A DNA stretch of 4,349 bases from a virus (IMGVR_UViG_2713896773_000007:1-4349), one strand, 5' to 3'. Counted from the stretch's first letter, positions 1-4,349 are shown. Numbers and translations are program-made. Notes: generated by a model not told the origin, from the letters alone.

Positions 1-26
1 AGCCTCGCATACGCGGGGCTTTTTTA
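1..26 (+). terminator. Putative rho-independent terminator (possibly truncated at the window edge)
   Basis: Stem 1-8 (agcctcgc) pairs with 13-20 (gcggggct), 8 bp with one G-U wobble, loop atac; followed by T-run 20-25. Probably ends the upstream gene (not in window). Confidence 0.45.
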
Positions 27-55
27 TATCTGTAGCCGAGAGGCAGGAGAACGTT

Positions 56-313
56 ATGGAAATGACTGTAGGATTCCCTGAAATGGGTTCGCGATTTGAA
101 TCTGTAAGCTTCGATCCAGATTTAGAAATTAAAATGATAAAGACTGTCAGAACCAAAATTACAGTTTGCAAGCTTGAGCAAATCAATGCGCCTCATGAAC
201 TGGTGTTTATCTATCAGGAGGATTTCAATCCAGGCAGCTCTTTTGCCGAAGTCGAAGCACGCGCCAAAGAATATGCCAGTAAGGCAATTGCCGGATTGAA
301 AACCCCGGCTTAA
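56..313 (+). CDS. Hypothetical small protein, 85 aa, no recognisable family; cargo (moron-like)
   Basis: ORF with strong RBS AGGAGA at 45-50, 5 nt before ATG 56. Clearly more AT-rich than the tail genes (runs such as gatttagaaattaaaatgataaag). No hydrophobic segment long enough for a transmembrane helix. Overlapping minus-strand ORF 122-388 has no comparable RBS. Confidence 0.6.
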   Translation: MEMTVGFPEMGSRFESVSFDPDLEIKMIKTVRTKITVCKLEQINAPHELVFIYQEDFNPGSSFAEVEARAKEYASKAIAGLKTPA

Positions 314-319
314 CCGGGG
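303..319 (-). terminator. Putative terminator for the minus-strand small gene
   Basis: Hairpin ccccgg (303-308) / ccgggg (314-319), loop cttaa. Read on the minus strand it is followed by TTTTC; on the plus strand it is followed by caaagc, so it is polar toward the minus strand. It overlaps the last codons of the + ORF 56-313. Confidence 0.4.
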
Positions 320-326
320 CAAAGCA

Positions 327-557
327 TTATTTGATGCGATGGTAGATGTTATCAGCCCTGGCGTACAATTTGGATACCGCCTCGGCACGACCTTGCTCTT
401 GCATCGTCATTTTTGATGTATCTCCACCGTAGGCCTTCGTCATATACTCAGTAACGCGCTTGCGAAAAGCTCCAGCATCACCTGATTCGACAGTGGCAAC
501 AGCTAATAAAAACGCTAAGGCTTCATCCTGCTGGTCTTCTTTGTTAAAGCTCATCAT
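327..557 (-). CDS. Hypothetical small acidic protein, 76 aa (75 aa if the second ATG is used), unknown function
   Basis: Minus-strand ORF. Reverse complement of 552-564 reads GGAG-TTT-ATG-ATG; the second ATG (554-552) has ideal 6-nt spacing from GGAG. No + strand ORF covers this interval. Translation looks like a compact helical protein. No family recognised. Confidence 0.6.
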   Translation of the reverse strand: MMSFNKEDQQDEALAFLLAVATVESGDAGAFRKRVTEYMTKAYGGDTSKMTMQEQGRAEAVSKLYARADNIYHRIK

Positions 558-685
558 AAACTCCTGTTATACCGAGGCCATCAGCCGCACCGTCGGCAAT
601 TAATGCGCCAGTGCCCACCACTGGCGGGCTGAATCCACAACATAACCAGGTATTTTGATTTGTAACATCCTGATATTCAGACAGT

Positions 686-710
686 AGCCACCTTCGGGTG
701 GCTTTTTTTA
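686..710 (+). terminator. Rho-independent terminator immediately upstream of gene M
   Basis: Stem agccacc (686-692) / ggtggct (697-703) with loop ttcg (UUCG tetraloop), then T7 (703-709) and A. Followed by GGAG 712-715 and ATG 721. Confidence 0.6.
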
Positions 711-720
711 TGGAGCAAAT

Positions 721-2732: not shown

Positions 2733-3464
2733 ATGAATAAAACCATAATGGCAGCTATCCGGGCGCATGCACTGGAGGAATCCCCGCGTGAGTGCTGTGG
2801 CTTCGTTATTCAGTCTGGCCGTCGCCAGCGCTACATTCCCGTGCCGAATACGCACGAAAATCCGACAGAACATTTTCGCATCGACGGCGAGCACTGGGCT
2901 AACGCCGAAGATATCGGGACGATTATTCGCGTCATCCACTCCCACCCGGGCGACGGTGCCCGGCCTATTCCGTCAGATCTGGACCGCCAGCAGTGCAACA
3001 ACTCCGGCTTGGTATGGGGTATTTACGCTCCGGACAGCGATGAATACGCCGAGATAATGCCGGAGGCGGTGCCGCTTATTGGGCGTCCGTTTATCCTGGG
3101 CTCGAATGACTGCTGGGGGCTGATTATGGACTGGCACGCCATTCAGGGCGTCACGCTGAACGATTTTCGCGTCGATTACCCGTGGTGGGAAAGCCAGTAC
3201 CCGGACAACCTCTATTTTGATAACTGGGAACGGGAAGGATTCGTCGAGTGCGATCCGGCACCAGGCTGCATGGTCATCATGCAGGTTGATTCGGATAAGT
3301 GGAACCATGCGGGCATCATCACTGAAGAAGGCGAACTGCTGCACCATCTTTACGGCCAGCCCTCGTGTGTCACGCCTTATGCCCGTGGCTATTTCAAAGA
3401 CCGCACGATGATCTGCGTTCGTCACAAATACCTGCCGCAGGAGATAAAGCCATGGCGCGTTTAA
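2733..3464 (+). CDS. K: Tail assembly protein K (lambda gpK-like; N-terminal JAMM/MPN domain plus C-terminal NlpC/P60 domain)
   Basis: 243-aa ORF. JAMM-like motif HSHPGDGARPIPSDLD (H69, H71, S81, D82) with upstream Glu residues. NlpC/P60-like Cys127 in GSNDCWGL and His192 in WNHAGII, with H204/H205 as possible third residue. This two-domain architecture is established for lambda gpK. 3-prime end overlaps I by 13 nt. Confidence 0.88.
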   Translation: MNKTIMAAIRAHALEESPRECCGFVIQSGRRQRYIPVPNTHENPTEHFRIDGEHWANAEDIGTIIRVIHSHPGDGARPIPSDLDRQQCNNSGLVWGIYAPDSDEYAEIMPEAVPLIGRPFILGSNDCWGLIMDWHAIQGVTLNDFRVDYPWWESQYPDNLYFDNWEREGFVECDPAPGCMVIMQVDSDKWNHAGIITEEGELLHHLYGQPSCVTPYARGYFKDRTMICVRHKYLPQEIKPWRV

Positions 3465-4045
3465 CCACCATTCGTCTGTATGGCGCACTGGGCGCCCGCT
3501 TCGGGCGTGTGCATAAACTGGCAGTGCAGACATCTGCCGAAGCGGTCAAAGCCCTGTGTATCAACTTCGACGGGCTGGAAGATTATCTGATGAATGCCAA
3601 AAAAAATGGCATGATCTTCGCGGTGTTTCGCGGAAAAAGGAATATCGGCACTCAGGACTTCCAGGAGCTGGCAGGAGACAGTGATATCCGCATTGCGCCG
3701 ATTATGGAAGGTTCGAAAAAAGCCGGAGTATTTCAGACCATCCTGGGCGCTGTGATGGTGGTGGCTGGTATCGCAATTTCTTACTTTAGCTCCGGTACTT
3801 TGGCTACGTTTGGCACAGGCCTTGCGATGTCGGGCGCGTCAATGATGGCAGGCGGCATTTACCAGATGCTATCACCTCAGCCCAAAGGGTTACAGGGGCG
3901 AGACGACCCTGACAATAAACCCTCTTATGCCTTTGGTGGCTCGGTGAATACCCTTGCGATGGGAAGCCCGGTCGCGCTTCTCTATGGCGTCCGTGAGATT
4001 GGCGGCGCCATCATCAGTGCAGGCATAGTCGCTGAAGACATCTGA
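3452..4045 (+). CDS. I: Tail assembly protein I (lambda gpI-like)
   Basis: In-frame ORF opens at 3365, but the real start is taken as ATG 3452 (MARLTTIRLYGALGARFGR...), which has RBS AGGAGA (3439-3444) 7 nt upstream and matches the lambda gpI N-terminus as I recall it (...ICLYGDLQRFGR...). Gly/Ala-rich hydrophobic stretch near the C-terminus, as in gpI. 197 aa. Confidence 0.82.
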   Translation: MARLTTIRLYGALGARFGRVHKLAVQTSAEAVKALCINFDGLEDYLMNAKKNGMIFAVFRGKRNIGTQDFQELAGDSDIRIAPIMEGSKKAGVFQTILGAVMVVAGIAISYFSSGTLATFGTGLAMSGASMMAGGIYQMLSPQPKGLQGRDDPDNKPSYAFGGSVNTLAMGSPVALLYGVREIGGAIISAGIVAEDI

Positions 4046-4065
4046 AAACTCCTTTCTGAATATCA

Positions 4066-4090
4066 AGCACCCAATTGGGTGCTTTTTTTA
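4066..4090 (+). terminator. Hairpin/T7 terminator-like element between I and J
   Basis: Stem agcaccc (4066-4072) / gggtgct (4077-4083), loop aatt, T7 at 4083-4089, then A. Followed by tggatgtaatATG; almost identical in layout and sequence to the element upstream of M. Confidence 0.55.
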
Positions 4091-4100
4091 TGGATGTAAT

Positions 4101-4349
4101 ATGGAAGCGATCACTGGTGCAAAGGGTGGCAGCCAGAAGCAGCACACACCTGTAGAACAGCCCGATTCGGCGCAGTCAATGGCGCGCTGCCGCATGCTGC
4201 TGGCGCTCGGGGAGGGGGAGTTTGCTGGTGGCCTGGATGCGACCCGGATATTCCTGGACGGTACGCCGTTGGGAAACCCCGACGGAACGATGAATTTTGA
4301 AAATGTGTCATGGGATTTCCGGCCTGGCACACAGACCCAGACACCAATA
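4101..4349 (+). CDS. J: Tail tip / host-specificity protein J (lambda gpJ-like), 5-prime fragment; continues beyond the window
   Basis: Open frame from ATG 4101 to the window end (83 codons, no stop). N-terminus MEAITGAKGGSQKQHTP...FRPGTQTQTP parallels lambda gpJ (MGKGSSKGHTPRE...FRAGEQEQTP) as I recall it. The ATG at 4090 is in another frame and hits a stop after about 21 codons. Confidence 0.85.
   Translation, partial: MEAITGAKGGSQKQHTPVEQPDSAQSMARCRMLLALGEGEFAGGLDATRIFLDGTPLGNPDGTMNFENVSWDFRPGTQTQTPI

Follow-up and report, generated by a model that had tools for sequence, protein, structure and literature searches.

A two-gene mobile moron cassette of the HK97 type in a lambda-like tail module, and the promoter-like region and leader of its reverse gene

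Introduction

Why would a lambda-like phage carry a small gene that points against its late operon, and when might such a gene be expressed? The question is raised by a viral stretch of DNA, IMGVR_UViG_2713896773_000007:1-4349. (We refer to this whole stretch of 4,349 nucleotides (nt) as the window.) Its genes form a tail-tip module like that of lambda, and the 720 bases before the tail gene M form an island with two small open reading frames (ORFs), ORF-A on the plus strand and ORF-B on the minus strand. An earlier description of the island, which we call the sequence-only reading, had seen two small genes that converge, each with a strong Shine-Dalgarno sequence, lying between terminators, and this layout was borne out.

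Our answer has three parts. From sequence comparison, the island is a moron cassette of the HK97 gene 22/23 type; it has two genes, is mobile, and here sits between the tape-measure side of the tail module and M. Ahead of ORF-B, at 555-685, is a new element: a conserved promoter-like region and a structured leader of ~80 nt, which are common to a large family. And the arrangement of these parts suggests when each gene would be expressed.

The island is a cassette of the HK97 gene 22/23 type

Bases 33-714 of the window align to positions 14452-15134 of phage HK97, with 90.2% identity over 682 nt. The HK97 record (GenBank AF069529) places gene 22 ("moron product") there, together with gene 23 ("reverse moron product") and a pair of putative terminators. 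ORF-A (56..313, plus strand) runs in the same direction as the late operon and encodes an 85-amino-acid (aa) protein of the HK97 gp22 family, 92.9% identical to gp22. ORF-B (327..554, minus strand) encodes a 75-aa protein of the gp23 ("reverse moron") family, 93.4% identical to gp23. The sequence-only reading had assigned the two proteins to no recognised family, which is mistaken: they are the products of HK97 genes 22 and 23, and the island is an ordinary feature of a lambdoid phage. The term "moron" was coined for a set of elements that includes the gene 22/23 pair. (Juhala et al. 2000 is reportedly the source for these genes as "moron" and "reverse moron.")

The two cassettes share the convergent layout, a hairpin between the stop codons, the promoter/leader block, and the right-hand terminator. 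HK97 gp22 and gp23 are annotated as longer proteins (120 and 86 aa, versus 85 and 75 aa in the window and in most relatives), but the extra length comes from changes at the 3' ends (a changed stop codon and an indel of 2 bp), and the cores that are conserved have 85 and 75 aa. Another difference is the site, which is the I/J gap in HK97 and upstream of M in the window. The insertion position is not a fixed property of the cassette, because relatives also lie beside ant/arc and between lysis and terminase genes. Altogether, we found the convergent A/B pair in at least four contexts: between H and M in the window; between I and J in HK97 and loci L005 and L007; beside a P22-type ant/arc region in L006; and, with B only 48% identical, between lysis and terminase genes in L015-17.

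The sequence-only reading had proposed that the island is AT-richer than its surroundings and is an accessory insertion of the moron type, and the data support both. The G+C content (GC) is 46% in the island (42% in ORF-A and 46.5% in ORF-B) versus 52-56% in M, L, K, and I. In HK97, HK022, and L005, M comes directly after H, with no A/B pair at that junction. In these two respects, as extra DNA and with a deviating base composition, the island fits the sense of moron used by Juhala and Hendrix.

Both genes are conserved and intact, as predicted. Pairwise ratios of nonsynonymous to synonymous substitution rates (dN/dS) are 0.13-0.21 for ORF-A and 0.02-0.05 for ORF-B. Because this is purifying selection, neither is a chance ORF.

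Of 5,426 complete E. coli genomes, only 3 carry the whole cassette. The E. coli chromosome NZ_LR536430.1 (locus L004) has an identical copy of 1-720; there, the cassette comes after the tape-measure gene and another two inserted genes. (There are four extra genes from tape-measure to M, at 11169-12554 of L004: those for a 74-aa hypothetical protein and a 171-aa zinc-ribbon protein, then A and B. L004 also has ISSen4, of the IS3 family, between I and J at 16152-17272. The window lacks ISSen4 and therefore comes from a different copy of the L004-type prophage.)

Are A and B a pair, or do they just happen to be neighbors? In the second case, B would be a fitness or exclusion gene expressed in the lysogen, A would be an independent late accessory gene, and recombination would swap cargo between conserved flanks. 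(By cargo we mean the reverse gene.) As described below, different cargo families are indeed swapped behind the same leader, and many cassettes lack an A-like gene. The cassettes are also mosaic internally: the B proteins of the window and L006 are the same except for 1 residue, but their A proteins are only ~60% identical. But all 15 of the 15 gp23-family cassettes have an A-like partner, which is more linkage than a mosaic region predicts, and the linkage persists at 48% identity and across the four contexts. We therefore think it rather unlikely that A and B are unrelated.

A conserved promoter-like region and leader precede ORF-B

The 165 bases from the start of ORF-B to M are conserved, in blocks, ahead of reverse genes that are unlike ORF-B. 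Phages with these blocks include HK022, ES18, Oslo, HK633, mEp213, mEp506, and O157/Stx-like prophages, and the core of the control region is found in 301 of 5,426 E. coli genomes. When we searched IMG/VR with a 26-base pattern from the control region, at least 120 stretches matched. The matches listed, together with loci that we had fetched previously, gave 138 instances with 90 unique leaders. Only 2 of the 90 (L023 and L117, among the matches listed) clearly lack the conserved leader. (We also scanned 596 Gb of genome contigs with a 15-base pattern, but this was too loose: nearly all matches were due to chance, in unrelated phyla, and one was true, in Citrobacter.)

The leader of the ORF-B mRNA would run from 633 to 555 on the minus strand. 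It has TCAGCC at its 5' end, then the hairpins P1 (606-613 with 619-626) and P2 (572-577 with 590-596), and then the Shine-Dalgarno sequence. The loop of P2 holds GGCUGAU (580-586). Whatever the cargo, TCAGCC and the start codon are 78-83 nt apart.

Several pieces of evidence suggest that the leader acts as an RNA. First, both hairpins covary. In an alignment of 62 leaders, P1 is paired in 98.8% of cases and has compensatory changes at 4 of its 7 pairs; one of these is C-G in 17 leaders, U.G in 30, and U-A in 14. P2 is 80% paired and has compensatory changes at 4 pairs. None of 500 shuffles reached the covariation score, and if the partner is slid by 1-3 columns, then only 24-48% of positions are paired. 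Second, P1 pairs better on the strand of ORF-B (98.8%) than on the opposite strand (88.7%), and the wobble pairs form on ORF-B's strand only. Because of the U.G intermediates and the better pairing, we infer that P1 works in the transcript of ORF-B. Third, we built a covariance model (R1, not a curated family) solely from the leaders of other cargo genes. R1 matches the window at 555-633 on the minus strand with 50.4 bits and E ~9e-13, across model positions 1-80 of 80. Together, the match to the leader model, the covariation of P1 and P2, and the fixed distance of 78-83 nt argue for a cis-acting 5' leader of ORF-B.

The leader seems to be absent from Rfam: a search of 1-720 with cmscan and Rfam 15 found nothing at E values up to 1. 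The minimum-energy fold of the leader differs from the fold that the covariation supports. The 5' TCAGCC could also pair with GGCUGA in the loop of P2, but both are invariant, so covariation cannot test this.

Upstream of the leader is the promoter-like region (639..676, minus strand), which is made up of conserved blocks: TATCAGGATGT at 675-665, a -35-like GTTACA at 666-661, CCTGG at 650-646, and a -10-like TATGTT at 644-639. Across 83 unique upstream regions, the -10-like hexamer fits TAnnnT and lies at a set distance from TCAGCC. Its last T, which is outside of our search pattern, is present in 83 of 83. The block TATCAGGnTGT is at least 95% conserved in these regions. CCTGG is invariant as well, but it belonged to the search pattern, so among the IMG/VR matches this is by construction. 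(It is also kept in all of the phages that we found by BLAST. CCTGG is a Dcm methylation site (CCWGG), located just upstream of the -10-like hexamer.) We also considered a LexA box, TACTGT...CAGG, upstream of the promoter-like site, and rejected it because its spacing is 9 nt and 10 are needed.

Could the block at 555-685 instead be a signal on the plus (late) strand, perhaps linked with the terminator or with how the late transcript is processed, rather than a promoter and leader for B? The block does always lie just upstream of a plus-strand terminator and the next late gene. However, it keeps its 78-83 nt spacing to the reverse start codon whatever the cargo, the wobble intermediates of P1 pair on the minus strand only, and the copies in O157-type prophages keep the element even though they have no terminator. 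We consider a plus-strand signal to be very improbable. (In the copies from O157 and Shiga toxin-producing E. coli prophages, L013 and L014, at ~2130-2580, the leader is ahead of a reverse gene for a protein of ~104-118 aa, which sits between the holin/YdfR and lysozyme genes. The late strand has no terminator there, and the start codon of the lysozyme gene abuts the conserved upstream block.)

The start codons and the proteins

The sequence-only reading had placed the reverse gene at 327-557. The gene is there, but it starts at the second ATG, at 554, and not at 557, since HK97 and all of the other relatives have only the second ATG. Also, the Shine-Dalgarno sequence AGGAG (the complement of 561-565) is 6 nt before the ATG at 554 and only 3 nt before the first one. 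ORF-A has its Shine-Dalgarno sequence, AGGAG, at 45..49 on the plus strand, 6 nt before the ATG at 56.

Neither ORF is a tail chaperone or a fragment of a tape-measure protein: we found no such match in Pfam, PHROG, or NCBIfam, and the cassette also occurs outside of tail modules. As the sequence-only reading had expected, neither protein appears to be embedded in the membrane (the highest hydropathy over 19 residues is 0.6 for one and 1.4 for the other). Beyond gp22 and gp23 themselves, family searches and structure prediction gave no detectable family or fold relative for either protein.

For ORF-A, large-database searches returned 12 clusters of relatives. There were no matches in Pfam, NCBIfam, or PADLOC, and the sole PHROG match was weak (phrog_11851, function unknown, E = 4.6e-4). 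The AlphaFold model of ORF-A is too poor to use, with a predicted local distance difference test (pLDDT) score of 44, and has only a C-terminal helix (residues 63-82). We also asked if ORF-A belongs to the DUF1327/YdfR family (PF07041), and it does not seem to: there is no Pfam match, and alignment of the A-like family to DUF1327 with hhalign gave a probability of 0.7% and E = 0.078.

For ORF-B, large-database searches returned 3 clusters, and with an exhaustive HMMER search the total came to only about 7 small relatives (43-50% identity), of which six were new. No informative matches were found in Pfam, PHROG, NCBIfam, or PADLOC. The AlphaFold model of ORF-B (pLDDT 87.6) has helices at residues 5-23, 27-42, and 51-74, and the predicted structure is a soluble three-helix bundle. 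We also considered whether HK022 gp23, ES18 gp25, and ORF-B are distant homologs of YecF/DUF2594, but neither Pfam nor hhalign supports this.

Terminators around and within the cassette

A scan of the window found 14 terminator-like sites, where chance alone would give 4.2. Strongest among them are three, at 1-26, 686-710, and 4065-4090. The first and second of these are the terminators that the sequence-only reading had reported as bracketing the island. Both are present, with an 8-pair stem (1-20) and a T-run for 1-26 and a 7-pair stem (686-703) and a T-run for 686-710, but only the right one is a conserved border.

The right intrinsic terminator (686..710) is on the plus strand, which is the strand of the late operon, and is the cassette's border just before M. 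It is kept in most cassettes, its stem shows a compensatory change (GCCACC/GGTGGC to GCCGCC/GGCGGC), and its equivalents are annotated as terminators in the records for HK97 and ES18. The left one (1..26, plus strand) varies between contexts. It is homologous only to the context of L006, it is absent from HK97, L005, and L007, and in NZ_LR536430.1 its equivalent comes after the gene for the zinc-ribbon protein. From these comparisons, we view it as a variable left border, outside of the constant unit, that ends the preceding insertion.

A third hairpin lies between the stop codons. It has the stem CCCCGG/CCGGGG (303-319) followed by TTTT on the minus strand (the whole feature is 295..319), and it overlaps the end of ORF-A. 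The equivalent in HK97 is annotated as the terminator of gene 23, and a compensatory change preserves the stem in L015 (CCCCGC/GCGGGG). By these comparisons, this is the terminator of ORF-B.

The leader precedes many cargo genes, with several types of forward partners

The genes behind the leader form at least 20 clusters that are distinct by BLAST. Most of them encode proteins of 65-100 aa, and their hosts are phages of Escherichia, Salmonella, Enterobacter, and Citrobacter. The ORF-B family is not related to the 11 largest other cargo clusters (hhalign probability under 1%).

We then took a census of the forward neighbors in 127 cassettes. The neighbor is A-like in 36, DUF1327/YdfR in 17, and a coiled-coil type with MTLEERVEALEK in 31; 6 cassettes carry two partner types. 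In total, 78 of the 127 have at least one of the three types, and the other 49 have none that we recognised. In 4 of the 6 with two types, the coiled-coil type is fused to an A-like domain (L100 and L103 show such a fusion), which suggests that these two types of forward partner may work together. (Short forward ORFs that start with MTLE(E/Q)RVE.LE and seem to be coiled coils are found in L011, L100-L105, L113, L127, and L131, and are convergent with the reverse genes.)

These counts raise the question of whether the forward partners act on the leader and not on the cargo. The A-like, DUF1327/YdfR-like, and MTLEERVEALEK proteins might be made late, bind the shared leader RNA, and shut off the cargo upon induction, for instance by recruiting RNase E. 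More broadly, the promoter-like block and the leader could be an uncatalogued and portable cis-regulatory module that gives the prophage cargo of enterobacterial lambdoid phages a "lysogeny-on, lysis-off" pattern, and whose late-made partners (A-like, DUF1327/YdfR, or "MTLEER") silence the cargo via the leader RNA. Silencing by such partners would make sense of a leader that stays constant while the cargo varies over the 20 or more clusters, of A-like partners beside at least 7 different cargo clusters, of the fusions and the frequency of the three partner types, and of the mosaic between the window and L006, as A need not track B. Also, E. coli YdfR binds RNase E, at its catalytic half, and is co-purified with RNA (PMC13232886). 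Against this, there are the 49 cassettes with no recognised partner, the A-like family appears to be unrelated to DUF1327 (the hhalign probability of 0.7%), and we found no copy of the leader near ydfR in the Qin prophage of E. coli K-12. Nor did we see an RNA-binding motif in ORF-A, and its structural model is poor. We judge silencing by leader-binding partners to be improbable, and the broader idea of a portable module that works this way is similarly a long shot.

Another alternative is that A and B are a toxin-antitoxin system or an addiction module. Both genes are small, they are closely linked, and they sit on a mobile element; in addition, the antisense transcript from the partner would cover the entire reverse gene, as in antisense-controlled modules. 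However, the genes are convergent and not co-transcribed, so they are not a type II operon; B is soluble and helical, unlike a type I membrane peptide; neither protein has a toxin or antitoxin match in PADLOC or Pfam; and the same leader precedes more than 20 different cargos. We give little credence to this explanation.

A proposed logic for the expression of A and B

Our preferred explanation, to which we assign a probability of roughly 60%, is that B is expressed from the prophage and is silenced by converging late transcription, and that A is made late. In the repressed prophage, B would be transcribed alone. The only RNA to carry A would be the Q-antiterminated late transcript, which would run antisense through B, its leader, and its promoter, so B would be off during lytic growth, due to both collision and antisense pairing. 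In the lysogen, the plus-strand terminator at 686-710 would shield the tail genes from transcription that is not antiterminated.

Two features of the cassette point to this logic. First, there is no room for a promoter for ORF-A within the cassette, because its ATG is only 29 nt from the terminator at 1-26, and the homology to HK97 begins just 23 nt upstream of the ATG (at base 33). With no space for its own promoter, ORF-A is probably a gene of the late operon and not an independent moron gene. And because there is no plus-strand terminator between ORF-A and 686-710, any transcript that includes A would be antisense to B, the leader, and the promoter. Second, ORF-B has its own conserved promoter-like region, leader, and terminator. 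So, the natural interpretation is the one that the sequence-only reading had offered: the reverse gene would be expressed independently, and late read-through would be antisense to it.

What might the proteins do? We suggest, tentatively and at somewhat less than even odds, that B could be a small cytoplasmic factor that binds a protein in the lysogen, for defense against other phages or to modulate the host, and that A could be a late partner that relieves or redirects what B does to the development of the phage itself. The logic would be that of the phi80 genes tai and ati, described below, which are unrelated in sequence.

Several observations weigh against the expression logic or against these roles. 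The promoter-like site in the window is a weak match for sigma-70 (8 of 12 consensus positions), below the threshold of our scan. When folded alone, the ORF-B leader is no more stable than shuffled sequence (z = -0.64). In the literature that we searched, we found no transcript, start-site, or protein data for the cassette or for HK97 genes 22 and 23. PADLOC has nothing for A or B, and a search with the predicted fold of ORF-B returned only generic helical matches and nothing specific. A-like proteins adjoin at least 6 cargo families besides gp23, so A fits poorly as a specific antidote that binds B. A and B also do not diverge together between the window and L006. Finally, A and B have no homology to Tai, Ati, or orf65 of phage phi80 (BLASTP E above 0.2; hhalign probability under 1%), and the phi80 genes tai and ati, to which we compare the cassette below, are divergent, whereas A and B converge.

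Other features of the window

After the island, the window encodes M (721-1071, PF05939), L (1071-1841, PF05100), K (2733-3464, JAB and NlpC/P60), I (3452-4045), and the beginning of J, which starts at 4101. L and K are separated by a second insertion (1854-2720, GC 43.5%). It begins with the window's only significant match to Rfam, int-alpA (RF02996) at 1854-1921, with 39.4 bits (the gathering score is 35.8) and E = 8.6e-6. An ORF at 1941-2690 (249 aa) matches HNH-endonuclease PHROGs (phrog_374, E = 3e-59) and has no Pfam family; it is followed by a terminator-like hairpin at ~2697-2720. The strong intrinsic terminator at 4065-4090 lies between I and J, directly ahead of the start of J. Together with 1-26 and 686-710, this makes three terminators inside what is one late operon in lambda.

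Significance and comparison with known systems

To the HK97 annotation, our analysis adds that the pair is a mobile unit found at four or more sites in phage genomes, with both genes under strong purifying selection. It also adds a widespread, covarying promoter-leader element, which is not in Rfam and which marks many small reverse genes in late operons. If the element truly marks genes that are expressed from prophages, then it would be a sequence handle for finding candidate accessory or defense genes, and the leader would be a defined RNA for tests of regulation.

The cassette can be compared first to HK97 genes 22 and 23, which, as described above, have nearly the same layout. The window differs from HK97 in its extra left-hand terminator, which HK97 lacks. 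Our literature search found nothing about the function of HK97 gp22 or gp23, or about the "srb" label of HK022 gp23.

Next are the sister cassettes: HK022 gp22/gp23, ES18 gp24/gp25, HK633_067, mEp213_071/072, the reverse gene of mEp506, and the reverse gene between holin and lysozyme in O157/Stx-like prophages. All of these share the promoter-like block and the leader (47-95 bits with the covariance model) and the reverse orientation in a late operon, and they usually share the plus-strand terminator and a small forward partner. In contrast, their reverse proteins have no detectable kinship to ORF-B (hhalign probability under 1%), and the forward partner may be of the DUF1327/YdfR or coiled-coil type instead of A-like. 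E. coli YdfR (DUF1327) itself is from the Qin prophage, and its family occupies the position of the forward partner in the ES18-type and O157-type cassettes. YdfR and ORF-A are similar in size and both have a predicted C-terminal helix, but they are not linked by a Pfam or profile-profile match.

Other prophages have genes that are expressed in similar ways. In prophage ST64B, a gene that is antisense to lytic genes has its own promoter and is transcribed during lysogeny (PMC7067206). HK97 gp15 (a moron for superinfection exclusion) and lambda bor and lom are small accessory genes in late or tail regions, with expression from the prophage (PMC3594210). HK97 gp15 is an inner-membrane protein, and its gene is forward with its own promoter, whereas A and B are predicted to be soluble and only B looks autonomous.

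The "noncontiguous operon" of phi80, whose logic has been demonstrated by experiment, offers a parallel for the arrangement of A and B. In phi80, the late operon depends on Q, and the defense gene tai is reversed within it and expressed in the lysogen; the counter-defense gene ati is adjacent, forward, and expressed only after induction; and the two are always inherited together (PMC11364771). Tai is larger than ORF-B (204 versus 75 aa), and phi80 lacks the conserved leader. What the phi80 genes share with the cassette is a reverse gene that interrupts the late operon, with a forward gene beside it.

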